Shown one piece after another: positions 35,278-52,755 of a DNA stretch of 64,000 nt; the first letter of the stretch is position 1; each line of letters begins with the position of its first letter. Under the pieces are notes generated by a model. The model did not search any database. It had not been told where the DNA came from and saw only the letters and a program-made list of their open reading frames with translations. Made by a program: the position numbers and the translations under genes. Origin of the DNA: an uncultured Verrucomicrobiae bacterium (GTDB lineage: Bacteria; Verrucomicrobiota; Verrucomicrobiia; Opitutales; JABDGR01); NCBI GenBank assembly GCA_963765205.1, contig CAVXVB010000002.1, forward strand, positions 160,001 through 224,000, written 5' to 3'.

Positions 35278-36441
35278 ATGAGTGCTCCTGCCATGTCCCT
35301 TCCCCGTCCACGCATCCGCTGGCCCAGCGCGGGTGCAATCATCTTCGCTTGCGCGCTCGCCTTGACGCTGCTTGGGCTGGTGGTACTCAGCAGTGCGGGC
35401 CAGGAGGCGAGCAAGGAGGCCCTCACCGACCCTCTGTTTTATTTCAAACGGCAAGTCTTGTGGTGCGGAATGGCGATGATCCCGCTGGTGCTGATGGCGT
35501 GGACTCCGCTCGAATACCTGCGGCGCTACAGTTGGATTATTGGCTTGGCGGCGGTACTCGTGCTTCTGGCGGTGCTCAGTTCACATGTGGGTGTCGTCCA
35601 CAAAGGCGCGCGGCGCTGGCTGGAATTCCACGGCCTGCGCCTGCAACCCTCCGACTTTGGCAAGCTGGCGCTGGTGATTTGCCTGGCGAGCTATCTGGCG
35701 GCCAACCAGCGCCACATTGCGAGTTTTTGGCGAGGGTTTGTGCTCCCCATGGGTATCGTGGGCGTATTCTGTGCGCTCATCATCCGCGAGCCGGACTTCG
35801 GCACAACAGCGCTCTGCGGGCTGGTGGGTTTTGTGCTGTTGTATCTGGCCGGTGCGCGGCTGCGGTTCTTGATTCCCTCGCTGCTGGCCAGCGGGGTGCT
35901 CTTTTCTGCGATGGTGTATTTTGACCCGGTGCGCTTCAAGCGTATCTTGTCCTTCATGCACATGGATGACCCGGCCACGCAGGCGGACGGAGCGTATCAA
36001 CTCTATCAAGGCATCGTCGGGTTTGGTTCGGGCGGGCTAACAGGCGTTGGGCTGGGACAGGGCCGTCAGCAACTCGCGTTTTTACCCGAGGCGCATACGG
36101 ACTTTGTGCTCGCTGTCGTGGGTGAGGAACTGGGCCTGGTGGCGACGATGGGCGTAGCCCTGGTTTTTCTGGTTATTTTCCTCGTGAGCCTGCGGGCGCT
36201 GCGGCGCGCGCCAAATCTTTACGAATTTACCCTGGCCGGTGGCGCACTATTGTTGCTTACGGGCCAGGCGCTCATCAACATGGGCGTGGTCACGGGTCTG
36301 CTGCCGACGAAGGGCATGTCGCTGCCATTCCTCAGCTACGGCGGCACGAACCTCATGCTGATGTTTGCGCTGGTGGGCCTGTTGATGAACTGCTTCCGGC
36401 GATGGGAGCGCCCGGTTTTACCCCGGGCGAGTGAACTATGA
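35278..36441 (+). CDS. ftsW: SEDS peptidoglycan polymerase FtsW
   Basis: GARRW, LQPSDFGK, EPDFGT, LPEAHTDF, GEELG and LPFLSYGG. Confidence 0.95.
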   Translation: MSAPAMSLPRPRIRWPSAGAIIFACALALTLLGLVVLSSAGQEASKEALTDPLFYFKRQVLWCGMAMIPLVLMAWTPLEYLRRYSWIIGLAAVLVLLAVLSSHVGVVHKGARRWLEFHGLRLQPSDFGKLALVICLASYLAANQRHIASFWRGFVLPMGIVGVFCALIIREPDFGTTALCGLVGFVLLYLAGARLRFLIPSLLASGVLFSAMVYFDPVRFKRILSFMHMDDPATQADGAYQLYQGIVGFGSGGLTGVGLGQGRQQLAFLPEAHTDFVLAVVGEELGLVATMGVALVFLVIFLVSLRALRRAPNLYEFTLAGGALLLLTGQALINMGVVTGLLPTKGMSLPFLSYGGTNLMLMFALVGLLMNCFRRWERPVLPRASEL

Positions 36442-37565
36442 GTACCTTTGCGATTTCCTGCGGCGGTACTGGCGGCCATTTGTCGCCGGGCATCGCGCTG
36501 GCCGAACGGCTGGCCGCGCAAGGCCACCGCCTGACTCTACTGATCAGCAAGAAGGAGGTGGATTCGCGCCTCATTCGCAAATACCCGCAGATGGAAACCG
36601 TCACCGCACCCGGTGCGGGGTTTGGAATGGCGCCGGCGACGCTGGCGAAATTCGCGGTGTCGCAAACGGCCAGTTTTTTGTTCGCGCTGAATTTTTTGCG
36701 GCAAAACCGGCCGGATGTGATTGTGGGCTTCGGCGGATTTATGACAGCGGGCATCACGCTGGCCGGCTATTTTCGCGGCATCCCGGTCGTGCTGCATGAG
36801 TCAAATCGCAAGCCCGGGCGGTCGGTGCGGCTACTGAGCGGTTTTGCCCGGCGCATCTATCTGCCGCCCGGCGTCCAGTTGCGTGGCCTGCCGCCGCAAA
36901 CGCTAAGACATTGCGGCTTCCCGGTGCGGCAGGAAATCCGCGCGTTGCCGCGCGAGGTTGCGCGCCTCCGCCTGGCGCTGCCCTTGGACGGCAAGGTGCT
37001 GCTGGTCTTGGGCGGCAGCCAGGGCGCCCGGACGCTCAATAATTGGCTGTCGAATAATTTCGGGAAATTGGCTGCGCGCGGCATCAGCGTCGTGTGCGTG
37101 ACGGGGCCGGGCAAAGGCAGCGAGGGCCAGATCGAATGTGCCGACCCGCAGGGCAAACGCCGTGTGGCGCGCCTGCTGCCCTTTTGCGACGACATGGCGG
37201 CGCTGCTCTCGTGCGCCGACCTCGCCGTCTCGCGCGCGGGGGCGGGGAGTCTGGCGGAATTCATCCGTTGCCGCCTGCCGGCCATCCTGGTGCCCTATCC
37301 CTACGCCGCGGACAACCACCAATGGGAGAACGCCCGTTACTTCGAGCGCCAGGGCGGCGGCCTCGCCATGGATCAGGCCGAAATGGAACGCCTGGCTGAC
37401 GAGGTGCTCGAACTCATTTTCAACGATTTTCTGCTGGAATCCTTCCGCCGCAACCTCGAACGCATGGAGCATTCCAATTCGCTCGACGTATTGCTGCATG
37501 ACCTCCAGGACCTGGCCGCCCAAAGCCGCCAATTCGCCGCCGAGGAAATGCCCGCCACGGTCTGA
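36438..37565 (+). CDS. murG: lipid II GlcNAc transferase
   Basis: GGTGGH, GFGG, HESN, GGSQGA, SRAGA and HQWENA. Confidence 0.95.
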   Translation: MSTFAISCGGTGGHLSPGIALAERLAAQGHRLTLLISKKEVDSRLIRKYPQMETVTAPGAGFGMAPATLAKFAVSQTASFLFALNFLRQNRPDVIVGFGGFMTAGITLAGYFRGIPVVLHESNRKPGRSVRLLSGFARRIYLPPGVQLRGLPPQTLRHCGFPVRQEIRALPREVARLRLALPLDGKVLLVLGGSQGARTLNNWLSNNFGKLAARGISVVCVTGPGKGSEGQIECADPQGKRRVARLLPFCDDMAALLSCADLAVSRAGAGSLAEFIRCRLPAILVPYPYAADNHQWENARYFERQGGGLAMDQAEMERLADEVLELIFNDFLLESFRRNLERMEHSNSLDVLLHDLQDLAAQSRQFAAEEMPATV

Positions 37566-37597
37566 TTCCACCCACCTTGGCCTCCATCCATGCGACC

Positions 37598-39925
37598 ATG
37601 AGCGACTCCCGCGAAAGCGTTTTCTTCCTCGGCCTCGGCGGCATGGGCATGGCGCCCCTGGCCCTCTATCTCGACGAGGCGGGCTGCCGTGTGCGTGGCT
37701 GCGACGACCATTGGCGCGAACCGGTCCGCCGCCTGCTCGAGCAACGTGGCATCGCCGCCATTGCGTGCGAGGAATTGCCTTCGGATATTTCGCGGGTGGT
37801 TTATTCCAGCGCCATCGCAACCGGGCATCCGCTCTTGTGTGCGGCACGTATCCGCGGCCTGGGTATCTTGCGCCGTGGTGAAATGCTGGCCGAAATGGTG
37901 CGCGGACGCCGGCTCATTGCCGTGGTTGGCAGCCACGGGAAGACGACCACCACCGCGCTGCTCATCCACGCCCTGCGGGCCGCCGGCCACGATTTCGGCT
38001 ACCTGCTTGGCGCGCTCTTCGCCGACCCCGCCACGCCGCCCGCCCGCCACGCCACCGCGCCCTGGGTCGCCGCCGAAGTGGATGAAAGCGACGGCACCAT
38101 TGACCATTTTGCGCCCGAAATCACCGTGGCGGTGAATTTCGATTGGGATCATGCCGACCGCTACCGCACCGAGGCCGAACTTGAGGCGACTTTCATCAAT
38201 CTTTTTCGCCGCACGCGCCAACTCGTGCTTTTGCCGCAATGGGATGCACGTCTGCGCCGCTTGGCCGAAACGGCCGGCACGCCCTTCCGCACGTTCGGGC
38301 CGGAAGGGGATTTTTCTGTCCGAGCCAGTGGTGACGATGGCGCGCGCCAGCGCCTGGCCTTGAATGGCGCCTTTGTGAAGTCAGTGGTCGAGGTTCCGCT
38401 AGGTGGTGAGTTCAACGCCGCAAACGCCGCCGCCGCCCTCGCCGCCGCGCACACGGCGTTTGGAAGCATTGCGGAGGAGCCGTTTGGCGGCTATCGCGGC
38501 GTGTCCCGCCGCCAGGACGTGCTGTTGCGCCGCCCAGGGTTGTCCGTTTACGCCGATTACGCGCACCATCCGACGGAAATTGCCGCACTGCTGCGCAATC
38601 TGCGCGCGCATTCGCCGGGCCGCCTGCTGGTCGTGTTTCAGCCGCACCGCTATACGCGCACGAAACAATTCGCGGCGGATTTCGCCGCGGCGCTGGGCGC
38701 GGGCGACCACGTGTTCCTCCTGCCGGTTTACGCCGCCAGCGAGCCGCCGCTGCCGGAAGGCGACTCCGCCGCCATCCTCGCCGCCGCACCGACCGGCGAG
38801 AATAAATTTTCCCTGCACGATTCTTTCAACGATTTGGAACGCACCCTTCGGGCTGCGCTTGCGAAACATTCTGAAGAGATCACGCTGGCCTTGGTGGGCG
38901 CGGGGGACATTGACGAGTTCGCCACGGCATTCGTCCGCCGATTGGAAGATAAATCCTCTCCGCCGCCCGCTTCCGTGATTAATCAAAAGAGCACCCTCGA
39001 TTGGTTTGACACACTATGTGCGCGCCTAAGTCCAGACACTCTGGCGCAGCGCGATGAGCCGCTCGCCGACAAAACCACGCTTGGGGTGGGTGGCCCGGCC
39101 CATTATTATGCCGAGCCGGCCACGATCGAAGACCTCGCGCAGTTGCTTCGTGCCGCCCGGGCCGCAGGCGTGCAGGTGTTTTGCCTGGGGCGTGGCTCAA
39201 ATTTAATTGTCACTGACACCGGTTATCCCGGTCTGGTGCTGCGGCTGAATCATGCGGAATGGAAGAAACTTCGTTTGGAAAGCCCGGATCGGATTTTCGC
39301 GGGCGCCGGCGTGCGGCTCAAGGAATTATGCGGCTTTGCGGCGCGGCATGGCCTCGCGGGGTTGGAATTTCTCGAAGGCATTCCCGGTTCGGTCGGCGGG
39401 GCGCTGCGGATGAACGCCGGCGCGATGGGGGGGTGGATTTTTGACCTCATTGCCGAGGTGGAATATGTCACTGCGGCCGGTGAAACACGGCGGGCTCCGC
39501 GCCATGAATTTCACCCTGGCTACCGCCAATGCCCCGAATTGCTCGACGCGGTCGCCATTGGCGCGGTGTTTCACGCGCCTGGGGGTGGCCCGCCGGAGGA
39601 GATCCGCCGCCGGATGGAGACTTTTGCGCTCAAGCGCAAAGCCACCCAGCCGCGGGAGCGCAGCGCGGGCTGCCTGTTCAAAAATCCTCCCGGCGGCCAC
39701 GCGGGCAAGCTGATTGACGAAATGGGCCTCAAGGGCCGGCGCGTCGGCGCCATCGAAGTCTCGATCGTTCACGCGAATTTCATTATCAATCATGGCGGCG
39801 GCACGGCGGCGGAAGCATTGGCGCTGGCGCGCCAGGTTCGGGGCGAAGTGTTTGCGCGCAGTGGCATCAAGCTCGAACCCGAGGTGCTGCTACTCGGGGC
39901 CAATTGGGAGGAAGTGCTGCAATGA
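37598..39925 (+). CDS. murC: bifunctional MurC-MurB fusion
   Basis: MurC motifs GLGGMGM, GSHGKTTTT, EVDESD, DYAHHPTE, FQPHRYTR; MurB motifs GVGGPA, GRGSN, IPGSVGG..MNAGA, SAGCLFKNP, HANF, LEPE. Confidence 0.95.
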   Translation: MSDSRESVFFLGLGGMGMAPLALYLDEAGCRVRGCDDHWREPVRRLLEQRGIAAIACEELPSDISRVVYSSAIATGHPLLCAARIRGLGILRRGEMLAEMVRGRRLIAVVGSHGKTTTTALLIHALRAAGHDFGYLLGALFADPATPPARHATAPWVAAEVDESDGTIDHFAPEITVAVNFDWDHADRYRTEAELEATFINLFRRTRQLVLLPQWDARLRRLAETAGTPFRTFGPEGDFSVRASGDDGARQRLALNGAFVKSVVEVPLGGEFNAANAAAALAAAHTAFGSIAEEPFGGYRGVSRRQDVLLRRPGLSVYADYAHHPTEIAALLRNLRAHSPGRLLVVFQPHRYTRTKQFAADFAAALGAGDHVFLLPVYAASEPPLPEGDSAAILAAAPTGENKFSLHDSFNDLERTLRAALAKHSEEITLALVGAGDIDEFATAFVRRLEDKSSPPPASVINQKSTLDWFDTLCARLSPDTLAQRDEPLADKTTLGVGGPAHYYAEPATIEDLAQLLRAARAAGVQVFCLGRGSNLIVTDTGYPGLVLRLNHAEWKKLRLESPDRIFAGAGVRLKELCGFAARHGLAGLEFLEGIPGSVGGALRMNAGAMGGWIFDLIAEVEYVTAAGETRRAPRHEFHPGYRQCPELLDAVAIGAVFHAPGGGPPEEIRRRMETFALKRKATQPRERSAGCLFKNPPGGHAGKLIDEMGLKGRRVGAIEVSIVHANFIINHGGGTAAEALALARQVRGEVFARSGIKLEPEVLLLGANWEEVLQ

Positions 39926-40866
39926 ATCCTCCTGACCAGACGACGGTGGCCGTGCTCGGCGGCAGCAATTCCGCCGAACGTGCGGTTTCGCTCGTCACGG
40001 CGCAGGCCATCGCTGGCGCGCTGAAAGAGGAGGGTTTTGCCGTGGAATTTTTTGATCTGCCCGGCTGTGTGTTGCCGGACGCGTTGGATCCGGCGCGACA
40101 CGTCGTTTTTCCCGCGCTGCATGGCGGCTGGGGTGAAAACGGCGGTGTGCAAGCCGCGCTCGAATCACACGGCTTCGCTTACGCGGGCTGCGGGCCTTAT
40201 GCCAGCCGCTTGTGCATGGACAAGGTGGAGGCCAAGCGCGTCCTCGCCGCCGCCGGGCTGCCAGTGTTGCCGCACGTTATCTTCACGGGGGAGCGACCAT
40301 CCGCCGCCTCGTCGCTTATGACCAAATTGGGTCCGGACATTATCATCAAGCCCATCGCTGAAGGCAGCAGTGTCGGCTTGCGCCGCGCGGCTAATCGCCG
40401 CGAGCTGGAGGCGGCGCTCGAGGGGTTAAGCCCCGGCCGGTGGATGGCGGAGCCGTGGGTGCGCGGGCGCGAAGTGTCCGTCGGCGTGCTGGCGGGCCGG
40501 GCGCTGGGGTTGGTGGAAATCCGGCCCAAGGACGGCGCATCCTACGATTTCGAGCACAAATACACCGCCGGAATGACGGAATACTTTTTCCCCGCGCCGC
40601 TGGATGCCGCGCTTGCGGAACAAATCCAGTTGGCTGCGGCCGGTGCATTTGCGGCGTGCGGCTGCCGGGATTTTGCGCGCGTGGACTTCATGTTGCCGCC
40701 GGAAGGCGGCTGCGTGATTTTGGAAATCAACACCATGCCCGGCTGCACGCCCACCAGTTTGCTGCCCAAGAGCGCCTCGTGCTGTGGCTATACTTTCCCG
40801 ATACTTATCCGGGCCATGCTTGACCCCGCCTTGGGCCGTTTTGCCGCCGTGGCGGCCGCACTATGA
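39922..40866 (+). CDS. ddl: D-alanine--D-alanine ligase
   Basis: GGSNSAERAVSL, LHGGWGENG, CMDK, EGSSVG, YDFEHKY and EINTMPG. Confidence 0.95.
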   Translation: MNPPDQTTVAVLGGSNSAERAVSLVTAQAIAGALKEEGFAVEFFDLPGCVLPDALDPARHVVFPALHGGWGENGGVQAALESHGFAYAGCGPYASRLCMDKVEAKRVLAAAGLPVLPHVIFTGERPSAASSLMTKLGPDIIIKPIAEGSSVGLRRAANRRELEAALEGLSPGRWMAEPWVRGREVSVGVLAGRALGLVEIRPKDGASYDFEHKYTAGMTEYFFPAPLDAALAEQIQLAAAGAFAACGCRDFARVDFMLPPEGGCVILEINTMPGCTPTSLLPKSASCCGYTFPILIRAMLDPALGRFAAVAAAL

Positions 40867-41807
40867 AAAAATCCCTCACTGCTGCGGAAGGCTTGCGCAC
40901 CTGGCAGGACATCGGCCAGCATGCCACCCACCGCGCTCTCTCGCCTGTGGCGCGGCGCAACCGCCTCATCCACTGGATCGGCTCCGGCCTGATGTTTGCG
41001 TTCGCCACGTTGATGTTATTACTCGGCGCCTGGGCCTTGCGTGGCTCGACGGCCGTGCCCGCGCGCACCCGTGCCAGCCAGCCTTTCGCCGCGCTCGGCC
41101 AATTCGAGTTTAAGACAGACGGGGTGCTGACCCAGGATTGGGCGATGAATTTCCTCCACTTGCAGCCGGGTGATTCATTGGAGAAGGTGGACGTGTTTGC
41201 ACTGCGCGCGCGTTTGCTGTCGTTGCTCCAAGTGCGCGATGCAACGGTCGAGCGCGTGTTGCCGGGCACCTTGCGCGTCAGTGTTGTGGAGCGCAAACCC
41301 TGGCTGCGGGTGGCCACCGATGACGGACAGGGCGGCTACAAGCTTTACCTCGTGGCGCGCGACGGCACCGTGTTCGCCGGCCAGGACTTTCCCGAGCAAA
41401 TCCTCAACCAACTGCCCTGGATGTCCGGACTGGCCTTGCACCGGGCGAAGGACGGCGGCTTCCAGCCGGTGCCGGGCATGGACGAGGTTTCCGATTTGCT
41501 CTTTGCCGCGCGTGCGCACGTGCCCACAATCGCCGCGCAATGGACCGTCGTGGATTTGAGCCAGTTCGATCCGCGCCCGACGACGCCGCTCCATGGATCG
41601 GTCATTAAAATCCAATCGGGCAATTTGGGCACCCTGACTTTTGCCCCTGCCGATTTTGAAACGCAAATCCACCGGCTGAGTTTCGTGGCTGATCAACTCG
41701 CAGCGAAGCCGATGCTTTTGCACGGTCTTGACTTCTCTCTGTCCAACCAGGTGATTGTACAACCCGTTGTGCCCCCGCCGCCGCTGGCTGCCAGCAGTCT
41801 GCATTAA
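40863..41807 (+). CDS. ftsQ: FtsQ/DivIB-type POTRA protein
   Basis: One TM, VRDATVERVLPGTLRVSVVERKP; between ddl and ftsA. Confidence 0.85.
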   Translation: MKKSLTAAEGLRTWQDIGQHATHRALSPVARRNRLIHWIGSGLMFAFATLMLLLGAWALRGSTAVPARTRASQPFAALGQFEFKTDGVLTQDWAMNFLHLQPGDSLEKVDVFALRARLLSLLQVRDATVERVLPGTLRVSVVERKPWLRVATDDGQGGYKLYLVARDGTVFAGQDFPEQILNQLPWMSGLALHRAKDGGFQPVPGMDEVSDLLFAARAHVPTIAAQWTVVDLSQFDPRPTTPLHGSVIKIQSGNLGTLTFAPADFETQIHRLSFVADQLAAKPMLLHGLDFSLSNQVIVQPVVPPPPLAASSLH

Positions 41808-41828
41808 ATCCCTTTGTTTTTCTTCCCG

Positions 41829-43046
41829 ATGAGCAAATCCCAAATCGTTGCCGCGCTCGACATCGGCACCTCCAAGGCCGTGGTGCTGGTGGGCGAAATT
41901 TTTCGCGGCGACCGGCTGAACATCCTCGGCGTGGGGCAGGCATCATCGCTCGGCGTGCGCAAGGGGGACATCCTGGATTTCATGGCCGCGTGCAATTGCG
42001 CGCACGCCGCATTGCTGGGGGCCGAGCAAAATGCTCGCGCGCAGGCCGAGGTGGCGTTCCTCGCGCAATCCGGCGCGCACCTCGATGGTTTCGCGCAGCA
42101 TGCCGAAGTGGCCGTCAGCGCGGCGGACAACCGGGTGCGCCCGATTGACGTGCAGCGGTTGCTGGCCGAGGCGCGCAAGAAGGAGCTGCCTCCCGGCCGC
42201 CTTGCCATCCACCACATCCGCAATTCCTTCAAGCTCGACGGCCGCCCGGTCGGCGATCCCATCGGTCAGTTGGGCGAAAAACTGGAACTGGGTTTTTGGA
42301 CGGTTACGGGTGACGAATCGCACCTCAGCAACGCCATCCATCTGGTCAACGGCTACAACGGCCTCGAAGTGAAGGACATCATCGTATCGAGCGTTGCCGC
42401 GGCCAACGTCGTCACGCCCGAGATGGATAAAAAAATCGGCGCCCTCGTGCTCGACATTGGCGCGGGCATCACCGATTACGCGCTCTACCGTGACGGCCAC
42501 ATTGTCAAAACCGGCGTCATCCCCATCGGCGGCGACCATTTGACCAACGACCTGAGCCTCGGCCTGCGCATCAGCCGCAAACACGCGGAACGAGTGAAGT
42601 TGAGTTTCGGCCAAGCCGAGGTGGACGCGCAGGCCCGCGCGGAAAAAGTCTGGATGGTCGGCGACAAGAGCGTGGGCGACCGCTATATCCCGCGCCTGGC
42701 CATCTGCCAGATTCTCGAAGCGCGCGTCGAAGAACTTTTTTCCATCGTCAAAAAACACCTTGGCTCGCTCTTGACGCCGGAGGATGTGGCCGGGGGCGTG
42801 ATCCTCACTGGCGGCACCTCGCGCCTGCCCGCCATCGAGCGCGTGGCCGAGCGCGTTCTCGGACTGCCCACCCGCCGCCCCGCCGAGCCCGCGTGGCTGA
42901 CGGAGTCGCTGCGCGGCCCGGAATACAGCGTGGCCGTGGGCCTGCTGCTCTTTGCGCTCAACGCGCCCCAACGCGAAAACCCTAAATCAGCCGCGCACGG
43001 TGGCGACGGGCTGATGAGTCAGATGGCGCGCTGGTTCGGCACCTGA
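41829..43046 (+). CDS. ftsA: cell division protein FtsA
   Basis: ALDIGTSK, LDIGAGITD, IGGDHLTNDL, AERVK and LTGGTS; amphipathic C-terminus. Confidence 0.95.
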   Translation: MSKSQIVAALDIGTSKAVVLVGEIFRGDRLNILGVGQASSLGVRKGDILDFMAACNCAHAALLGAEQNARAQAEVAFLAQSGAHLDGFAQHAEVAVSAADNRVRPIDVQRLLAEARKKELPPGRLAIHHIRNSFKLDGRPVGDPIGQLGEKLELGFWTVTGDESHLSNAIHLVNGYNGLEVKDIIVSSVAAANVVTPEMDKKIGALVLDIGAGITDYALYRDGHIVKTGVIPIGGDHLTNDLSLGLRISRKHAERVKLSFGQAEVDAQARAEKVWMVGDKSVGDRYIPRLAICQILEARVEELFSIVKKHLGSLLTPEDVAGGVILTGGTSRLPAIERVAERVLGLPTRRPAEPAWLTESLRGPEYSVAVGLLLFALNAPQRENPKSAAHGGDGLMSQMARWFGT

Positions 43047-43074
43047 TTATTTTCCTCCGCAACCTCCCTCCTCT

Positions 43075-44382
43075 ATGAACACCTCCGCCCATACGTCCTC
43101 CAGCGCCGACCAAATCCTGTCCGGCCAGATGCCGGAGGACGGCGTGCGCGTGAAAATCGTCGGCGTTGGCGGCGCGGGCACCAACGCGGTGGACCGGCTG
43201 CAGCTCGACCATGTCGGCCTGCGGCTGCGCATCGCCGCGCTGAACACTGACGCGCAGGCGCTCAATTCCTCGCCCGCGCCGGAAAAATTGCTCATTGGAC
43301 GCGGGCTGACGCGCGGTGTGGGCACGGGCGGCGAGGCGGACGTCGGCCGCGCGGCCGCCGAGGCCGACCGCGAGCGCATCACCAAAATTTTCCAGGGCAT
43401 GGACCTGGTGTTTATCGTGGCCGGGCTGGGCGGGGGCACGGGCAGCGGCGCGGCGCCGGTCATCGCGCAAATCGCCACGCAGGCGGGCGCGCTGGTCGTC
43501 GCCTTCGTCATGCTGCCGTTCACCAACGAGGGCGGCCGCCGCCGCCAACTCGCCGACCAGGCCCTCGCCGAATTGCGCCAGACCTGCGACGCCGTCATCC
43601 CGCTGCCCAACGATCTGCTCCTGCAACACCTGCCCGACGACGCCACGGTGCTCGACGCCTTCGGCCAGGCCGACGCGTGGATTGGCCGCGCCATCCGCTC
43701 CATCTCCGCGATTTTGTTCCACACCGGCCTCATCAACCTCGACTTCGCCACGCTGCGGCGCACCTTCACGCCCCGCGGCGGCAAGACGCTCTTTGGCCTC
43801 GGCCACGGTTCCGGCGAGAATTGCGTGGCCGAGGCGTTGCACGACCTCATGCTCTGCCCGCTGCTGCACACGCCCGAGTTGTCGCGCCGGGCGGACCGGC
43901 TGCTGGTTAACATCGTCGGCGGCCCCGAGCTGAGCCTGGCGCGCGTCAATGAAATCGTTGCCGTCATCGCCGAAAAATTCGGCAGCCGCGAGCAGACTGT
44001 TCTCGGTGCGGTGATTGACGAGCGCTTGATCGGGAAACTGGAAATTTGCGTCATCGGCATGACGGAAGTGCGGGCCAAAGGCTCGTCGCTGGCCTCGCTG
44101 CGCACCGCCCCACCCGGCCTGCGGGCCGACGCGCCCGCCCCGGCCCCGAACCAGGCCCCGGCGATTTTCGCCCGGCCCCCGGCCGCCGCCGTGGCCGCGC
44201 CGCCCGTGCATGAATCCAAGCTGCGCGGGCACAAGGACGGCGGCGCGCCGCAAAACGAATTTCACTTTGTCGGCGAGGACGAGCAGCGAGGCTATTTCGA
44301 CCAGACCGAGCGCAACTTCTTTGAAGGCGAAGACCTCGACGTGCCCGCCTATTTGCGGCGGGGGATTAAAATTCAGTTGTGA
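43075..44382 (+). CDS. ftsZ: cell division protein FtsZ
   Basis: GVGGAGTN, NTDAQ, GLGGGTGSG, PFTNEG, GLINLDF and C-terminal DLDVPAYLR. Confidence 0.95.
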   Translation: MNTSAHTSSSADQILSGQMPEDGVRVKIVGVGGAGTNAVDRLQLDHVGLRLRIAALNTDAQALNSSPAPEKLLIGRGLTRGVGTGGEADVGRAAAEADRERITKIFQGMDLVFIVAGLGGGTGSGAAPVIAQIATQAGALVVAFVMLPFTNEGGRRRQLADQALAELRQTCDAVIPLPNDLLLQHLPDDATVLDAFGQADAWIGRAIRSISAILFHTGLINLDFATLRRTFTPRGGKTLFGLGHGSGENCVAEALHDLMLCPLLHTPELSRRADRLLVNIVGGPELSLARVNEIVAVIAEKFGSREQTVLGAVIDERLIGKLEICVIGMTEVRAKGSSLASLRTAPPGLRADAPAPAPNQAPAIFARPPAAAVAAPPVHESKLRGHKDGGAPQNEFHFVGEDEQRGYFDQTERNFFEGEDLDVPAYLRRGIKIQL

Positions 44383-44385
44383 GGC

Positions 44386-45435
44386 TCACTTCACCAGCAG
44401 CGTCGCCAGCCCCAAGAACAGGCCCATGCTGGCCACGTTGGTCGCGGTGGTGAGGAAAATGCTTGAGGCGGTGACGGGGTCGGCGCCGAATCGCTTAAGG
44501 ATCAGGGGCACAACCGCGCCGCAGACACCGCTGATCACGCAACTGCCGACCATGGAGAGGAACACCACGAGGCCGAGCATGGGGGCGGTGGACAAATGAT
44601 GGACGGAGGCGACCCCATACATGGCCAGCCCCGCGACCAACCCGATGAGCGTGCCATTCATCAAACCGAGCAGGCCTTCTTTGATGACCTGCGCCTTGAT
44701 CTTGCCTGTTTTCAGATCACCCAGGATCATTCCGCGCAGGGTGATCGCCAGCGCCTGGCTGCCGGCGTTGCCCGACTGGTCGGCCAGCACTGGCAGAAAA
44801 ATGGTGAGAATCAGCAGCCGGTCAATGGTGCCTTGGAACAAACCGACCACGGCGGCGGCGGCAAAGGAGGTAAGCAGGTTGACCTGCAGCCAGGGCAGCC
44901 GGAGCCGCAGGCTTTTTAACCAGGGCGTGGAGGAACGGACTTCCTTTTCAACGCCCACCATCGCGCCGGGCTGGGCGGTCAACTCGAACGATCTTTTCTG
45001 TTCCGCGACGACGCGCTCGTAGAGATTCTTCGTTTCCTGATGCAGCAGGCGCACTTCGAGCAGGTTATGAACCCGGAGCAACACCTCGGCCAGGTCGAAC
45101 GGTTTGCTGACGAAATCTTTCGCCCCGGCTTTCAGCGCGCGCAGTTTATGCTCCGGTTGGGCCGTCAGCACGATGACCGGCAGATAGCTGTCCTTTTCGA
45201 TTTCCTTCAACTGTTCCATTACCTGGAATCCGTCCAGGCTGGGCATCTGCAAATCGAGCAGGATCAAGTCATAATGGTGTTGGCGGTGCAGCGCGCCGAC
45301 TTGGCCCGAGTCCATTGTGGTCGTGATGGCATCATAGCCGGCCCCGCGCAGCATCTGCTCGAGCAGTGCGACATTGGCCTGTTGATCGTCAACAATCAGG
45401 ATTTTGCCGTGCAGGATGTCCGCTGAACTGATCAT
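44386..45435 (-). CDS. response-regulator receiver domain fused to MgtE-type integral membrane domain
   Basis: N-terminal REC (LIVDD, LLDLQMP, LTA, SKPF), coiled linker, then RLPWL..GNAGSQ..TLRG..G+DP..LTTAT 5-TM MgtE pattern; single uninterrupted ORF. Confidence 0.88.
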   Translation of the reverse strand: MISSADILHGKILIVDDQQANVALLEQMLRGAGYDAITTTMDSGQVGALHRQHHYDLILLDLQMPSLDGFQVMEQLKEIEKDSYLPVIVLTAQPEHKLRALKAGAKDFVSKPFDLAEVLLRVHNLLEVRLLHQETKNLYERVVAEQKRSFELTAQPGAMVGVEKEVRSSTPWLKSLRLRLPWLQVNLLTSFAAAAVVGLFQGTIDRLLILTIFLPVLADQSGNAGSQALAITLRGMILGDLKTGKIKAQVIKEGLLGLMNGTLIGLVAGLAMYGVASVHHLSTAPMLGLVVFLSMVGSCVISGVCGAVVPLILKRFGADPVTASSIFLTTATNVASMGLFLGLATLLVK

Positions 45436-45450
45436 GGCCTGGGTCCTGTG

Positions 45451-48000
45451 TTAGACAATCGAGCCATGGGTTTTTTCGGCAAATTCCAGGGCGTCGTTCA
45501 AGGTTTCACTGAATTCCCGGACCTTAATGGGTTTGGTGAGGTAGCGAAAGAATCCGACCTCGAGGCCCACTTCAATGTCGCGCAACATCGCGTTGGCGCT
45601 GATGGCCACGACAGGGATGTGGGCCGTCGCCTGGTCTTCGCGCAGGATTTTCAAGGCGTCAATCCCGCTGATGCCGGGCAGGTTGATGTCCATCAGGATC
45701 ACGTCGGGCTGGCTGGCGCGGGCCAGCTCGATGCCGAGGGTGCCGTTCACCGCCGTCAACAGCTTGATGTCTGCGCGCTGCGCGATGAGTTGCTCGACGA
45801 GCATCATGTTCGCCGGGTTGTCCTCGATATAGAGCACGGTGTGCATGCGCGCGTCAATCAGGCCGTGCGGTTGCGCGCCAGTGGCTGGCTCGGTCCTTTC
45901 CAGGACCAGGGTGGGCGCCGCGGTCGAGAGCAGTTCAATCCAGAACACGCTGCCCGCTCCGACGGTGCTTTCCACGCCGAGGACGCCATCCATCAGTTCG
46001 GCCAGTTGTTTGGTGACCACCAAGCCGATGCCGGTGCCCGCGACGCCGCCGGCCTCCTGGCCGAGGCGGTTGAACGGCTGGAAGAGCTGCGCAAGTTTTT
46101 CCGGCGCCAGGCCCGCGCCGGTGTCCCGGACGCTGATGCGCGTTCGATCCGGGACGATCGTGGCGCAGTCCACGACCACCGTGCCTTTCTCCTTATTGTA
46201 TTTGATCGCGTTGGAGAGCAGGTTGATGACAATTTGCTTCAAACGCGTGCGGTCGGCCCAGACAAAACTGGGCTGGTCGAACCGGGGAAAAGTCATATGA
46301 ATCCCGCGCTGTTGCGCCTGCGGCTCCATCATGGCCTGGCATTCGGACATGACGTCGGTGAGCGACACCGGCTCCAGCGACAGGGAGACTTTGCCGGACT
46401 CGATGACCGCGAGGTCCAGGATTTCGTTGATCAGTTTGAGCAGATGCCAGCCCGCCTGGAGGATCTGGGCGATACGCGCTGTCTGGACGGGCGTGGGCAA
46501 CGGTGTCGCCGTCTCCATCAATTGCGCGAAGCCGAGGATTGCATTGAGCGGGCTGCGCAGTTCATGGCTCATGCTCGAGAGGAACCCCGATTTGGCGAGG
46601 TTGGCCTTTTCCGCGGTGGACTTGGCGCTCTCCAGCTCGACGTTGGATTCCTGCAAGGCCTGCTCGAAGCGCTTGCGCTCCGTCACGTCGCGTGCGGCGG
46701 CGAACACGCCTTGCAGTCGCCGGTCGCGGTCATAGAAGGTGGTCGCGTTGTAAGACACCACGGTTTCCTTGTCATCGCGTGCGCGCGCGGTGAGTTCGTA
46801 GTCGGTGACCTTTTTCTCGTTTAGCACCAGCTTGATGGCGGCTTCGGCCCGCTCCGGGTCGGTGAAATAGTTTTTGAACGGCGCGCCGATCAATTCGTCG
46901 CGCGTGCAGCCGGTGAGCGCCTCCATCTGCTTGTTGACGTCGGTGATGATGCCGAGGGGGTCGGTGGTCATCAGCGCGTCAATGTTGGATTCGATGAGGG
47001 AGCGGGTGTAGAACTGCTGGTCGCGCAAGCGCTGATCCAGCTTCTTCTGCTCTTCTTCGACCTGTTTGCGCGCGGTGTTATCCGTGCCAATCAACAGGTA
47101 GCCGATGATGCCGCCCTCATCTCCGCGCAACGCCGTGACCGACACGACGGCGGGAAAGCGGCTGCCGTCCTTGCGGATGTAGGTCAATTCGTAGATGTCC
47201 TCGATCCCGCGCGAGGCCTTGAAAACCAGCGCCTCGAAGCCCGGCATGATGGTGGTCGCCAGTTCGACGCTCAACGTTTTGGCCCGCGCAATGAGTTCCT
47301 GCGAATCGGAAATATCGGCCGGCGTGATTTTGTTCAGCACTTCCGCCGCGGTGTAGCCGAGCATGCGTTCGGCGCCGACATTGAACAACTGGATGACGCC
47401 CTTTTCATCCGTGGCGATGCTCGAGAAATTGGCGCTGTTGAAGATGGCGCTCTGCAAGGCCCCGGCCTCGAGCAGCGCCTCTTCCGCGCGCTTGCGGGCG
47501 CTGTTGTCGGTGCCGATCAGCAAATAGCCGATGATGCCGCCCCGCTCGTCGCGCAGCGCCGTGACCGACACGACGGCGGGAAAGCGGCTGCCGTCCTTGC
47601 GGATGTAGGTCAATTCGTAAATGTCCTCGATGCCGCGCGAGGCTTTAAACACCAGAGCTTCGAAGCCTGGTGCAATCGTGGTCCCCAGTTCAAGGCTCAA
47701 GGCGGCGGCGCGCGCGATGACTTCCTGCGGGTCGGAAATGTCCGCGGGCGTGATTTTGTTCATCACGTCTGCGGCCGTGTAGCCCAGCATGCGCTCGGCG
47801 CCGACATTGAAAATCTGAATAACGCCCTTTTCATCGGTGGCGATGCTCGAGAAATTGGCGCTGTTGAGAATTGCGTTCTGCAAGGCTCCCGTCTTTAGCA
47901 CCGCCTCCTGGCGGCGGACTTCCGTGATGACCTCCACCGTGCCGTCGGCCAGATGTTCGACTTCCGGGGTAAATAATACGGGAATTTTCGTGCGGTTCAT
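45451..48000 (-). CDS. cytoplasmic hybrid histidine kinase (3 PAS, HisKA, HATPase, REC)
   Basis: SHELRSPL, NLLSNAIKY, DTGAG, GTGIGL; C-terminal REC LYIEDN..MDINLP..TKP; no TM segment. Confidence 0.95.
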   Translation of the reverse strand: MNRTKIPVLFTPEVEHLADGTVEVITEVRRQEAVLKTGALQNAILNSANFSSIATDEKGVIQIFNVGAERMLGYTAADVMNKITPADISDPQEVIARAAALSLELGTTIAPGFEALVFKASRGIEDIYELTYIRKDGSRFPAVVSVTALRDERGGIIGYLLIGTDNSARKRAEEALLEAGALQSAIFNSANFSSIATDEKGVIQLFNVGAERMLGYTAAEVLNKITPADISDSQELIARAKTLSVELATTIMPGFEALVFKASRGIEDIYELTYIRKDGSRFPAVVSVTALRGDEGGIIGYLLIGTDNTARKQVEEEQKKLDQRLRDQQFYTRSLIESNIDALMTTDPLGIITDVNKQMEALTGCTRDELIGAPFKNYFTDPERAEAAIKLVLNEKKVTDYELTARARDDKETVVSYNATTFYDRDRRLQGVFAAARDVTERKRFEQALQESNVELESAKSTAEKANLAKSGFLSSMSHELRSPLNAILGFAQLMETATPLPTPVQTARIAQILQAGWHLLKLINEILDLAVIESGKVSLSLEPVSLTDVMSECQAMMEPQAQQRGIHMTFPRFDQPSFVWADRTRLKQIVINLLSNAIKYNKEKGTVVVDCATIVPDRTRISVRDTGAGLAPEKLAQLFQPFNRLGQEAGGVAGTGIGLVVTKQLAELMDGVLGVESTVGAGSVFWIELLSTAAPTLVLERTEPATGAQPHGLIDARMHTVLYIEDNPANMMLVEQLIAQRADIKLLTAVNGTLGIELARASQPDVILMDINLPGISGIDALKILREDQATAHIPVVAISANAMLRDIEVGLEVGFFRYLTKPIKVREFSETLNDALEFAEKTHGSIV

Positions 48001-48287
48001 GGTGGATGGTTTTCTACGAGTGGAGCGGTCGGACGCAAATTTGGGGCAGGCTGGCAACGGCGAACCGATGTACAACCCGCCCAAGCAAACCGTATTTTAC
48101 GGCACAGGTTGACAATGCCCGAAAACGCCCGCGCGGGCTATGGGGTGTAACCCTTCTTAAGCGCAGCTCTGCCGAGGGATTCTCTGCTCGCGGCGGATCC
48201 CCTCAGCCGCGAGTCGCGCGATGGTCTGGCCGCCGGAAAACGCAAGAACGAAGCATCAATTATTACTCGCCAGATCCAGACGCAGTT

Positions 48288-48347
48288 TCGTAGCGCCGCG
48301 GTTCGCTCGAATCGCAAAGAAGCGCTGGCTGAAGCTCAGTGCTACGA
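48288..48347. repeat. inverted pair of REP-like units
   Basis: TCGTAGC...GCTACGA ends; the minus-strand unit TCGTAGCACTGAGCTTCAGCCAGCG resembles 8949-8973. Confidence 0.5.
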
Positions 48348-48434
48348 TACAAGCAATTTTTCAAAACAAACCACCGTGGCACCCTTTGGAGAAGATGCCA
48401 TTCATAATCCGCCGGGCGGTCCCGCCACCGTGAT

Positions 48435-49832
48435 TTAGGTCAGGGACAATTTGCCGGTGCTGTCACCGAGCTGGTCATCCGAGGCGCCCACATGGTCGAG
48501 CATGGAGAGCCAGAGGTTGTTGATGGGCGCGCCTGCGGCATCCATGTGGCGGCCGGTCTTGATGGCATTACCGCCGGCTTTGCCAAGCAGGATCAGCGGC
48601 AGGTCATCGTGGTTGTGGCGGTTGCCGTCACTGATGGCGCCACCGTAGGAGATGAGCGAGTTGTCGAGCAGCGAGCCGTTGCCTTCCTTGATCGAGTCCA
48701 GCTTGTCCAGCATATAAACGAACTGCTGCAAGTGGTAAGCATTGATTTTTTGCAGCAGCGCCATTTTTTCCGGGCTGCCCATGTGGTGGGAGGTGCCGTG
48801 GTGCGGAACATTGGCGCCGCCCCAGGGGTAGGACTGGTTGCTGCCTTCGTCGGCGAAGGGGAAGGTCACGATACGGGTGAGGTCGGCCTGGAAAGCCAGC
48901 ACCATCATGTCAATCATCAGTTTGATATGCGTGGGGTATTCGGTGCTCGAAGTGGAAATGCCCACCTTTTGTTCCAGACTCGAATCGTAGGCCGTCGCGG
49001 GCCGCACCGCGCCGGCCGGCAGGGGAGGGGGCGGTTCGTTGGCGGCACGTTGGAGACGGACTTCAATTTCCCGGACAGAGGTCAAATACTGGTCGAGTTT
49101 ATCCCGGTCCGTGGCGGTGAGGCCTTTTTGGACGTTGTTGGCGTCATTAAGGACGAAGTCCAGAATGCTTTTGCTGTCTTTTTCGCGCAAGGCCTTGGCT
49201 TCGGGTGTTTCGCCCGGATTGCCGTTGGAGAAAAGGCGGTCAAAGACGGACTGGGGGTCCACGTCCTTGGCCAGCGGGGTGGTGGGATTGCGCCAGGCGA
49301 GATTATGCTCGTAAGCCTTGAGATAGTTGTTGTCTGTCGCCGCCTTTTTGCCGTCCTCGATCCCGATTTCCAGCGAGGGAAACTTGGTGAAATGGCCGAT
49401 TTTTTGCGCGGCAATCTGGTCGGCGGAAACGCCGAGATGCATGGGCACCGGCGGCTTCCACGGATGCACACCTGTCAGGTAAGCGGCATTGCCGCGGGCA
49501 TGGTCGCCGCCCCCTTCGCCGTAGGCGTTGGCCTTGTCGCAGACGAGGTTGCTGATGACCAGCATGCGGTCGCGGTAAGCCTTCATGACGCTGAGGGTGG
49601 GCGTAAGTTCATAATCCGCGCCCAAGGTGGCGGGGGTCCAGTTCTGCATGTCAATGCCGTTAGGGACGTAGATCCAGGCCAGGCGCTTGGGGCCCGCGGC
49701 GGCCTTGGCGACGGCGGTGTCGGAGATGGCGGCAAAGGAGCGGCAGGGCAGGAGGGATTCGAGAAAGGGCAGCGCCATGGCGGTGCCCAGCCCACGCAAT
49801 ACTTTCCGACGGCTGATGGTGTGTGTGATCAT
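48435..49832 (-). CDS. DUF1552 domain protein
   Basis: ISRRKVLRGLG..LPFLES (Tat-like), YVPNG, SADQIAA, SLEIG, FDRLF, SILD, DLTR, HHGTSHH, EGNGSLLDN and GNRHNH. Confidence 0.92.
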   Translation of the reverse strand: MITHTISRRKVLRGLGTAMALPFLESLLPCRSFAAISDTAVAKAAAGPKRLAWIYVPNGIDMQNWTPATLGADYELTPTLSVMKAYRDRMLVISNLVCDKANAYGEGGGDHARGNAAYLTGVHPWKPPVPMHLGVSADQIAAQKIGHFTKFPSLEIGIEDGKKAATDNNYLKAYEHNLAWRNPTTPLAKDVDPQSVFDRLFSNGNPGETPEAKALREKDSKSILDFVLNDANNVQKGLTATDRDKLDQYLTSVREIEVRLQRAANEPPPPLPAGAVRPATAYDSSLEQKVGISTSSTEYPTHIKLMIDMMVLAFQADLTRIVTFPFADEGSNQSYPWGGANVPHHGTSHHMGSPEKMALLQKINAYHLQQFVYMLDKLDSIKEGNGSLLDNSLISYGGAISDGNRHNHDDLPLILLGKAGGNAIKTGRHMDAAGAPINNLWLSMLDHVGASDDQLGDSTGKLSLT

Positions 49833-52755
49833 GATTGGTTGTCTCCGGTTGATGATTTTTCTCCTGGTGGATTGCCGCGTCTTTGAAGGAAGGCATCGCT
49901 GTGGACGATGGCATGAATCAACGCGGAAAATTTATCACCGTTCTTGTGCATGGTCGAGACGATATCGTTGGTGGTGCGGACGTCAAACGGCTCGACATTG
50001 CGCCCGAGGGCGTAGGTCAGCATTTTGGTGGCCAGGCAGCGGCAAAACTGATCTTTGGAGGCCAGCAGGGTTTGTTCCAATTCCTTGGCGCCGTTAAAAG
50101 TGGTTCCATCGGGCAGGTGGCCGGAGGCGTCAATGGGATCATTATTGATGTCCTTGGTGCGCCAGGCGCCCGTGACATCAAAGTTTTCGAGGCTGAAGCC
50201 AATGGCATCCATGCGCTCATGGCAGGAGGCGCACACGGGATTGGTCCGATGTTGCTCCATTTGCTGGCGCAGCGTGCCCTTGAGTTGTTTTTCGTCGTCG
50301 AGGGCGGGAACGTTAGGGGGGGGCGGGGGGGGGCGGAGTCCAGTAGGTTCTCCAGCACCCATTTGCCGCGCTGCACCGGGGAGGTGCGCGTGTTGTAGGA
50401 CGTGATGGCGAGGATGCTGGCCTGGGTGATCAGGCCGCCGCGCGGGGAGTTTTTCGGGAAGGTAACCCGTTGGAACGCATCGGTGAAATTGCCCTCCAGG
50501 CCGTAGAGCTTGGCCAGTGGCGCGTTGACAAAGCTGTAATCGGCATCAATGAAATCAAGCACGCTGCGGTCTTCATCCTTGATGCTGGAGAAAAACATCT
50601 GTGTTTCCGTCAGCATCGCCGTCTTTAGTTCAGGGGTGAAATTGGGAAATTTATCGGAGTCGGGATTGACGTCCTCCACTTTGCGCAATTGCAGCCACTG
50701 ACCGGCAAAATTGTTCACGAGGGCCTCGGCCTTCGGATCCTTGAGCATGCGCGTGACCTGCTCGTCAAGATGGGCATGCAACTGGCCTTTGGCGGCCAGG
50801 GCGAACAACTCGTCGTCGGGCATGGTGCTCCACAGGAAATAGGACAGACGGGAGGCCAGCTCGTAGTCGTTGAGGGTGTGAATGTTATTCGGCTCGCCCG
50901 GCTGCGGGTCTTGCTCAATGCGGAACAGGAAATTGGGGTTGAGCAGCACCGCTTGCAGCGCAACAGTCACGCTTTTTTCAAAAGGACGGTCGGGGGTGTC
51001 CACGGAAGTAAAGAGGCCCATGAATTTGTTCACCTCGTCATCGGTGGCGGGCCGGCGGTAGGCGCGGGTGACAAAGTTGCGGATGATTTTTTCCGCCGCC
51101 TGGGTCCTGGTCAAAGTATTGGAGGGGTGCGCGACCATCACGCTCTGGTAGCTCTTGGGCATGCGCTCGGGCATCTCGGTGGCGTTGGTGAACTGGGGGC
51201 CTTCCACTTTGAGGCTAAGGACGCCGAGGATGGTCGCGCCGGGGACGACGGGCGTGGGCCCCGGGGGGGGGCCTCCACGACGGCCAGCACCCGCGCCGGC
51301 AAAATTTCGACCGGCGGTGCCCCGGGCACCGGCTGGAGCAGCCGATGAGGCGGCGGCGGGCGCAGCAGCCGGAGCGGCACTGGCCGCAGCATCGCTGCCA
51401 CCGGCAGAGGCGGCGGGATCGGCAGCGGCAATGGCACCGGCAGGAGCGGAGGACGAGATGGAAGCAGGCGCGGCGGAGGGTGTAGGAGCCGTTTGGTCAG
51501 CGGCCGGACTGGCCGCACTGGGGCTGGGATTAGCCGCAGCAGTTGCAGCCGCCGTCACGGCGGCATTGTAATCATCAAGTGTGGCACCATTGCGGAAAGC
51601 CAAAGTTATGCTATGCGGGCCAGCCGTGACGTGAATTTTCGGCGAGGCAACTTCCTGCGGGGCGTTCGCTACGGCCGAGACCTTCAGGGAATACCGGTCG
51701 GGATTCTGATCTGCTCCTTGGATGTTGGCATCAACCACCGGTATATTGCCATCAAGGTAGAAGAGAACATTAGCGGTAGGCCCGGCGTTGCCACGGCCTC
51801 CGCCGTTGCCGCCACCCGCGTAGCCCTTTAGACTAAAAATGTAATCGCCCTCCACGGGAAAATTGTAATTCACATAAATGTAGCCGGATCGTTGGAAAAC
51901 GCGGCCGAGTACCACGGGTGGGCCACCTCGGCCGCCGCGCCCGGCACCGGCATTCTGACCGGCATTCTGGCTGGCCGCAGCCAACGCCGCCGCTGCGGGC
52001 ACGGGCGGAGCCGCCGGGGCCGGATTGGTTTTGGGAATGTCCCCTTCGAGGGCTGTGGCGTCAAATACTTTGCTCGGGGGCGGCACCGTCGGGTCGGTGA
52101 ACACGGCGGCATCCAAGGATACCTCGGCGGCTTTGATATATTTCTCGAACAGCACGGGTGCAATGTTCAGCGCGTCACCATTGTTGTCGAAACCATCGCC
52201 GGCGTCATCCGCCGGGAAGCTGTCCGCGGGATGCAGGTCAATGGCGAGCAAATCGCGGACGGTATTGTCGTATTCGACGCGGTTGAGGCGGTGGATGGTG
52301 ACGCGGCCCGGGTCAATGGGTCCGCTGGCATAATAGCTGGTTGTGTATTTATCCATCCAGGCGACGACCGTGTGATACTCGTCTTCCGTGGGCCGCTTCT
52401 CTTCCTTGGGCGGCATTTTGCGGGTGTTAAGCATCTCCATCGCCTTCGCGATGGTGGGGACGCCTTTGGCCAGCGAGGCATCATCGTGGAACGTATCCAA
52501 GCGCACATCCCCTTCGGTGTCATCGGGGCCATGGCATTCGTAACAATGCGCGGCCAGAAAGGGCTGAACAGTCTGCTGGAATTCCGCAAAAGTGGGGATC
52601 GCGGGTTGCGGCGGCGGGGTCTGCGCCAGCTTGGGATTCGAGCACGCCAGCAGCACCAAGGCGGTAAGACTCGAGGCAATGCTGATCCGTTGGAAGGGCC
52701 GTTGGGAAAAGCCGGCCGGTTCCTTTGCTTGGTGGGGTTTACCAAGGTGAAACAT
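49829..52755 (-). CDS. DUF1592/1587/1588/1595/1585 planctomycete-type cytochrome c protein (frameshift in G-runs at ~50320)
   Basis: CYECH, HRLNRVEYDNT, GFDNNG, RAYRRP, ELASRLSYFLWS, FAGQWL, TSPVQRGKW; then PPPPNVP, CASCH and YALGR in another frame. Confidence 0.9.

Follow-up and report, generated by a model that had tools for sequence, protein, structure and literature searches.

In a 64,000-nucleotide stretch of DNA from an uncultured Verrucomicrobiae bacterium (assembly GCA_963765205.1, contig CAVXVB010000002.1, positions 160,001 to 224,000 of the forward strand; below, the window), we analysed a two-gene cassette encoding a soluble hybrid histidine kinase and a receiver domain fused to an MgtE membrane domain. 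Both genes lie on the minus strand, and the fusion open reading frame (ORF; 44386-45435, uninterrupted) follows the kinase ORF after a gap of 15 nt. This arrangement, with three PAS domains in the kinase and an intact fusion, had been proposed in a preliminary description of the DNA and was confirmed by the ORFs and by Pfam; an ATG at 48000 as the kinase start agrees with the starts in relatives. The features of the cassette, with the evidence for each in brackets, are as follows.

44386..45435, minus strand: receiver-MgtE fusion gene (P0001), 349 amino acids (ORF, Pfam)
45070..45402, minus strand: receiver domain of the fusion, with the phospho-acceptor D61 at 45253-45255 (Pfam, alignment)
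44953..45069, minus strand: coiled-coil linker (AlphaFold, linker comparison, dimer model)
44395..44925, minus strand: MgtE membrane domain, five helices (Pfam, structure alignment, AlphaFold)
44779..44781, minus strand: D219, a new acid in transmembrane helix 2 (TM2) at the place of Thermus G325 (structure alignment)
44437..44439, minus strand: N333 in TM5, in place of the Mg2+-filter residue Thermus D432 (structure alignment)
45451..48000, minus strand: soluble hybrid histidine kinase, PAS-PAS-PAS-HisKA-HATPase_c-REC, 849 amino acids (Pfam, ORF)
47041..47892, minus strand: PAS1 and PAS2 of the kinase, tandem duplicates (Pfam)
46663..47022, minus strand: PAS3, a different PAS type (Pfam)
45931..46596, minus strand: kinase core, with the phospho-His479 codon at 46564-46566 (Pfam)
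45499..45837, minus strand: C-terminal receiver domain of the kinase (Pfam)

Pfam assigns two domains to the fusion protein, Response_reg at residues 12-122 (95.5 bits, cut-off 30.2) and MgtE (PF01769) at residues 214-342 (84.2 bits, cut-off 27.6). The same scan gave no match to CBS (PF00571) or MgtE_N (PF03448), in agreement with the earlier statement that both regulatory domains are absent, and the score for TIGR00400 (84 bits) is below the cut-off of 233. The receiver residues D16, D17, D61, T91 and K111 and the MgtE motifs RLPWL, GNAGSQ and GADP are all present, as had been described. Foldseek matched WspR (3i5a and 3bre) and PleD (1w25), the matches listed being receiver structures only, and the whole MgtE domain aligns to 2YVX/4U9N. 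What the preliminary description overlooked are two changes in the pore: the TM5 aspartate is an asparagine (N333) and TM2 carries a new aspartate (D219).

The fusion is not a singleton. A homologue search gave at least 120 matches (the query and 119 others, 65-85% identical, each match being a cluster at 90% identity), and 120 of the 120 listed contain both REC and MgtE. Across these, D16, D17 and D61 are kept in 120/120, T91 in 119/120 and K111 in 118/120. Thirty distinct loci carry the fusion and span at least eight named phyla; their assignments are Verrucomicrobiota, Pseudomonadota, Thermodesulfobacteriota, Myxococcota, Nitrospirota, Bacteroidota, Ignavibacteriota, Blackallbacteria, Sericytochromatia and one short Actinomycetota contig, these names being the labels of metagenome-assembled genomes (MAGs), in which mis-binning is possible. 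The nearest named relatives are Opitutales MAGs. A tree computed from linker plus membrane part for 139 fusions and 19 of 55 canonical sisters (a truncated copy was dropped) has a branch of SH support 99 that separates the fusions from canonical N-CBS-MgtE proteins, whose membrane part is 56-67% identical to that of the fusion. In three myxococcal copies the same membrane part is joined to another receiver (35% identity), suggesting that the receiver was swapped and the architecture kept. A search for longer fused forms reduced 4,919 candidates of 612-2000 amino acids to seven matches, all CBS-type MgtE, shorter forms lying outside this search. Among the best 150 in a profile search of representatives at 50% identity there were one full-length representative (P0129) and one differing fusion (P0130). 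In the latter, a short junction joins a receiver to another MgtE subfamily, with the filter Asp retained; its cluster has no other member, its contig is 1.8 kb long, and no second copy was found among the 80 loci kept from a metagenome scan, so we set it aside as a second origin.

Several observations bear on whether the gene could be an assembly chimera, or a recent fusion with a decaying membrane half. The DUF1592 gene nearby is broken into two pieces at a G-rich run, and some Ferrovum copies and one Gallionella copy of the fusion are truncated, all of which would fit such an origin. Against it stand the shared architecture of the 90%-identity clusters and a Logan contig from sequencing run X1 that equals 44565-45529 with 0 differences, spanning both the REC/TM junction and the intergenic gap; this run may be the source sample, and the contig is thus a test of the assembly rather than an independent occurrence. 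The ratio of nonsynonymous to synonymous substitution (dN/dS, Nei-Gojobori) of the membrane half came to 0.040 and 0.009 for two close D219/N333 pairs; six fusion pairs with Gly at 219 and Asp at 333 gave 0.055-0.069. These values resemble those of close canonical pairs. For the window paired with each of the three named relatives nearest to it, the ratio is 0.16-0.32, with dS probably underestimated. Every listed fusion pair has a ratio far below 1: purifying selection acts on the membrane half, contrary to a decaying TM half. For the family, sequence comparison has thus already refuted the chimera or decay explanation, and for the gene in the window we find it hardly credible.

Two further observations concern paralogues. 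In the pair of loci L003 and L005, the receiver dS (1.20) far exceeds the membrane-domain dS (0.35), which suggests that receivers were exchanged between cassette paralogues. A Gallionella MAG (L012:1966-4277) has two receiver-MgtE paralogues in tandem, the first truncated in TM5.

The junction between the two halves is informative about how they could communicate. The splice lies near residues 149-150, within the C-terminal part of the MgtE plug helix. The helix before the plug segment nearly matches the linker of receiver-adenylate cyclases of the same receiver clade up to the splice, and the last part of the plug helix is common to the fusion and its canonical sisters. A likely origin, judged from this pattern, is recombination of a receiver-cyclase gene with mgtE inside the plug. 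In Thermus MgtE the plug (residues 246-263) is reported to seal the cytoplasmic side of the pore, with a gate formed by L263-N424, and loss of plug contacts unlocks the pore (PMC4241985, PMC5882242, PMC8104411). M159 of the fusion, invariant in the family alignment, is probably the equivalent of the gate residue L263, in a plug register aligned to Thermus by hand.

The linker is also constrained in length. The distance from the receiver K-P to the M-V-G is 48 residues in 46 rows, 62 in four, 69 in two and 76 in 88, so that in 140 of 140 rows the differences are multiples of seven, and five further complete fusions have linkers of 48 or 76. The lengths trace back to only about three independent events, which puts the probability of this by chance at about (1/7)^3. 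In the AlphaFold2 monomer (predicted local distance difference test, pLDDT, 75; predicted template-modelling score, pTM, 0.41; residues 152-169 below 50), residues 115-154 form one unbroken helix. ESMFold2 scored the homodimer at 0.59 against 0.00 for the best control, a mark that 20/30 solved pairs and 1/23 single chains reach; that the fusion reaches it may reflect likeness to solved MgtE and receiver dimers. Contact agreement was at least 93% and partner pLDDT at least 78. The predicted contacts lie at 94-120 (the receiver alpha4-beta5-alpha5 face), in heptads along 124-162, and at 218-220, 329 and 333, with residue 333 touching 215 of the other subunit, and an unbroken coiled coil runs from receiver to pore in the modelled dimer. 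The splice within the plug helix, the heptad-quantised linker and the dimer model together support the view that receiver and MgtE gate are mechanically coupled.

These features also bear on a simpler role, in which the MgtE dimer is only a membrane anchor that tethers a CheY-like receiver acting on a partner protein, the pore being irrelevant. Such a role would suit the soluble kinase, the loss of the filter Asp in most members (it is kept in 46/139 complete fusions), and the joining of the same receiver clade to DUF1003 elsewhere. Yet an anchor would need neither linkers quantised in heptads nor the pore-lining residues P215, Q220, N223, Q227 and D319, which are invariant or near-invariant in the family, nor coupled changes at 219 and 333 (below). 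We consider this role improbable.

The pore itself appears remodelled. Alignment to Thermus structures, with numbering checked against the residue numbers of the papers, places N333 at D432 and D219 at G325. In Thermus MgtE, the carbonyls of P321 and L324 reportedly line the same site as D432 (PMC4241985). All 55 canonical sisters have Asp at the first of these positions and Gly at the second (G/D when written in the order G325/D432); the TM5 Asp is also present in 17 others that a later scan added. The 139 complete fusions are diverse at 219/333: D/N in 70, G/D in 34, G/N in 16, S/D in seven, D/D in five, D/S and A/N in three each, and Y/N in one. Exactly one Asp is thus present at the two sites in 114/139, both in 5/139 and neither in 20/139. 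The kink glycines of Thermus (G325, G328 and G435) correspond to D219, G222 and S336, so this feature is not preserved; the serine at 435 is common to the canonical sister clade, whereas the aspartate at 325 is not. Other TM2 shifts in the fusions lie at Thermus 314, 317 and 332, and P321, N329, Q333 and D418 are kept.

We asked whether the two sites change together. A Pagel test of correlated evolution on 135 rows, after exclusion of two truncated copies and three with swapped receivers, gave a likelihood ratio of 58 (49.5 on a membrane-only tree), whereas none of 48 control column pairs exceeded 16.8, a comparison biased upward in that the control columns helped to build the tree and the two test columns did not. 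In the fitted model, the state without Asp is left fast and the state with two is seldom entered. A single origin of the derived filter state was rejected by the approximately unbiased (AU) test on 41 thinned rows (p <1e-4 for full length, about 0.02 for TM only). We read these patterns as a pore filter changed under selection, not decaying. With D432 replaced by Asn and G325 by Asp, Mg2+ conduction cannot be assumed.

The changed filter is also relevant to the possibility that the protein simply imports Mg2+ in the ordinary way, largely without gating, and that its receiver is a passenger. No second MgtE domain and no CorA were found in the host genome (92% complete), and MgtE forms lacking N and CBS domains are described as common (bioRxiv 10.1101/2025.05.26.656215), as an importer would lead one to expect. 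However, the filter Asp is absent, and the receiver catalytic residues are near-invariant. An MgtA-type ATPase scores above the cut-off in the host and is also found in two of four cassette-bearing relatives tested, and CorA is present in four of five other fusion-bearing genomes tested. An importer of this kind seems very improbable to us.

The kinase is the other half of the cassette. Its domains are HisKA (residues 469-536), HATPase_c (583-690) and REC (722-834), and none of its Pfam matches is a transmembrane or extracellular domain. His479 is kept in 79/79 clade copies. PAS1 and PAS2 are 84% identical and contain no His, Cys or Trp; a sequence search found no solved relative for them, and no cofactor residue is evident. 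This PAS type is strongly conserved (often 80-93% identity across phyla), with a copy number that varies between kinases. PAS3 has a conserved Cys365, present in 41/44 aligned copies.

A kinase of this clade (core at least 55% identical) lies upstream in 21 of the 30 fusion loci, bearing out the expected co-occurrence; the nine remaining loci include two contigs cut just upstream. Kinase and receiver of the same clades are also paired in 53/60 loci with other outputs, which in scanned examples are adenylate cyclase, GGDEF, HD-GYP, SpoIIE, PAS, kinase and DUF1003. By this genomic evidence the receiver-kinase partnership appears conserved, and since the same pair drives many outputs, the MgtE pore would be one plug-in output of a modular cassette. 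The earlier proposal of a PAS signal tied to the MgtE output stands as far as the partnership goes, but PAS1-type repeats occur in only 11 of the 21 upstream kinases (11/30 loci, some contigs being cut short), and the pair is not dedicated to MgtE. Four close relatives hold the cassette, and the DNA that they have in common with the window extends only over about 44383-47959, with differing flanks.

As an observation of its own, fusions of the receiver clade to DUF1003 adjoin the receiver-MgtE gene at L003:794-1762, L005:9151-10152 and L019:3394-4347. DUF1003, which we take to be a membrane domain, is a second unusual output of the cassette, probably membrane-bound.

The direction of signalling could also be the reverse. 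The MgtE dimer might be a non-conducting sensor of an ion, pH or voltage that tunes the gain or loss of receiver phosphate through the coiled coil; it would then be a phosphate sink under membrane control, serving the sibling regulators that share the kinase (cyclase, GGDEF, HD-GYP). Heptad phasing is compatible with either direction, fusions often stand in tandem with same-clade receivers bearing second-messenger outputs, and Pseudomonas aeruginosa MgtE is reported to be regulatory beyond transport (PMC13209247, bioRxiv 10.1101/2025.05.26.656215). The loss of transport in the D432N mutant of Thermus MgtE and the 20/139 members without a pore acid fit a sensor as well. Nevertheless, the cassette in the window has no sibling regulator. 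No other receiver of the fusion's clade was found in the genome at 45% identity or more, so that a sink would act only on the kinase's own receiver. Moreover, 41/139 members lack D219 but have the canonical Asp in TM5, and each site appears to compensate for the other. We regard a sensor as the main rival of the reading that follows, though as less likely than it.

We prefer, with about even credence, to read the protein as a cation pore that is gated by phosphorylation and has a relocated filter, rather than as a housekeeping importer of Mg2+. The kinase would phosphorylate D61, either directly from His479 or via its own receiver and an HPt protein encoded elsewhere; HPt domains do occur at other places in the genome. 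Receivers would then pair through their alpha4-beta5-alpha5 faces and shift the coiled coil, which would move the plug ends that seal the cytoplasmic gate of MgtE; phosphorylation would thereby replace Mg2+/ATP binding as the gating signal. Cations would pass a filter in which the carboxylate now stands on TM2 (G325 to D) instead of TM5 (D432 to N), and with this relocation the selectivity probably differs from that of classical MgtE. The pore would act as a fast, signal-driven effector of ion flux or membrane potential, not as the Mg2+ supply of the cell, and the kinase would probably open or close a channel in the membrane with gene expression unaltered. The MgtA-type ATPase of the host is in keeping with this reading. 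The replacement of CBS gating by receiver gating, suggested previously, thus gains support from the coupling of receiver and gate, but the pore is not a canonical one. A more specific version, to which we incline only tentatively and at somewhat less than even confidence, is a natural two-component-gated channel in which a receiver-cyclase helix was grafted into the plug and the filter carboxylate moved repeatedly between TM5 and TM2, creating a new filter chemistry.

A number of results weigh against a gated pore. Both positions that are critical in Thermus are altered in the fusion protein: D432A and D432N are reported to abolish Mg2+ transport (PMC4241985), and G325A nearly loses complementation (PMC8104411). 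The members without an acid at either site persist, most of them in one clade, and 13 G/N rows lie in one such persisting clade. Beyond the bias of the Pagel test given above, the fusion trees are poorly resolved, and an independent-pairs test restricted to well-supported branches yielded only three pairs and no support. In Ferrovum myxofaciens, three of four variants on contigs longer than 2.5 Mb are truncated, so the gene is probably dispensable there.

Expression in a cultured carrier bears on the pore reading in both directions, the presence of RNA-seq reads speaking for it and their low level against it. Sideroxydans sp. CL21 encodes a D/N member, P0295. Its gene SidCL21_979 (1143 nt long, separated by 23 nt from the kinase gene before it and by 36 nt from the gene after it; supplement of PMC7784907) agrees in length and gaps with the fusion of locus L353, which is 95% identical to P0295 in its C-terminal part; this orthologue was identified by size and spacing, not by sequence. 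It is annotated there as an adenylate cyclase, with 218-274 reads in monoculture and 92-133 in co-culture (PMC7784907). Its expression is low and unchanged between the two conditions given (log2 counts per million, log2CPM, 3.93 and 3.97), below that of the CBS-type mgtE of CL21 (7.1 and 6.4) (PMC7784907).

If a phosphorylation-gated pore is nonetheless the correct reading, bacteria of many phyla would possess a route from a kinase to ion flux or membrane potential that does not pass through transcription. The natural G/D, D/N, D/D and G/N variants make relocation of the D432 filter testable, and the family makes testable whether plug-helix movement alone gates an MgtE pore; Sideroxydans sp. 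CL21 is available in culture. A kinase-gated pore of 349 amino acids would also be a compact part for synthetic biology.

The surroundings of the cassette are of a different nature. The stop codon of the fusion gene lies 3 nt from that of the convergent ftsZ, with no terminator-like site between the two genes; a scan of 44100-48500 gave no sigma-70 promoter-like site and terminator-like matches at chance level, and no RNA data set was listed as carrying the window. ftsZ belongs to an ordinary cell-division cluster on the plus strand (35278-44382: ftsW, murG, a murC-murB fusion, ddl, ftsQ, ftsA and ftsZ), named from translations, of which Pfam confirms ftsZ only. We rejected a functional tie to ftsZ because the DNA common with relatives ends at the cassette boundaries. 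On the other side are a DUF1552 gene (48435-49832) and, preceding it, the split DUF1592/PSCyt-type gene (49829-52755, minus strand), which lies in two frames with a break near the G-rich run at about 50318-50335. DUF1588 is present in both pieces, and the split is either an assembly error or a genuine frameshift; the assembly may thus contain frame errors.

Most known outputs of response regulators bind DNA or proteins or are enzymes. Reviews of these output domains are said to list receiver-transporter fusions, so a passing mention of the present architecture is possible. A full-text literature search, judged by titles and the starts of abstracts, found no description of a receiver-MgtE fusion or a receiver-gated channel. 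The main text of a survey of MgtE in 27,742 genomes, its figures and supplement aside, names no receiver-fused class (bioRxiv 10.1101/2025.05.26.656215), and the supplements of PMC12442390 held no match. The TM-only, TM-TM and 'mini-N' MgtE forms of that survey resemble the fusion in having no N and CBS domains.

The closest structural comparison is with Thermus thermophilus MgtE (PDB 2YVX, 2ZY9, 4U9L, 4U9N and 8H5E). The two proteins have in common the five-helix membrane domain, the end of the plug helix, the equivalents of P321, G328, N329, Q333 and D418, and, in the predicted model, a homodimer with TM2 and TM5 at the interface. In contrast, Thermus MgtE has N and CBS domains where the fusion has a receiver and a coiled coil, and D432 is N, G325 is D and A317 is T in the fusion. 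The plug acids E258 and D259 are absent from the fusion in the hand-set register, as they are from the canonical sister clade. By sequence, the protein thus belongs to the MgtE fold family but departs from it in three features that define a Mg2+-gated Mg2+ channel. WspR, PleD and the receiver-adenylate cyclases resemble the other half of the protein, a receiver with an extended alpha5 helix, and the cyclases also in their near-matching linker; in these proteins the effector is an enzyme, whereas in the fusion it would be a membrane pore.

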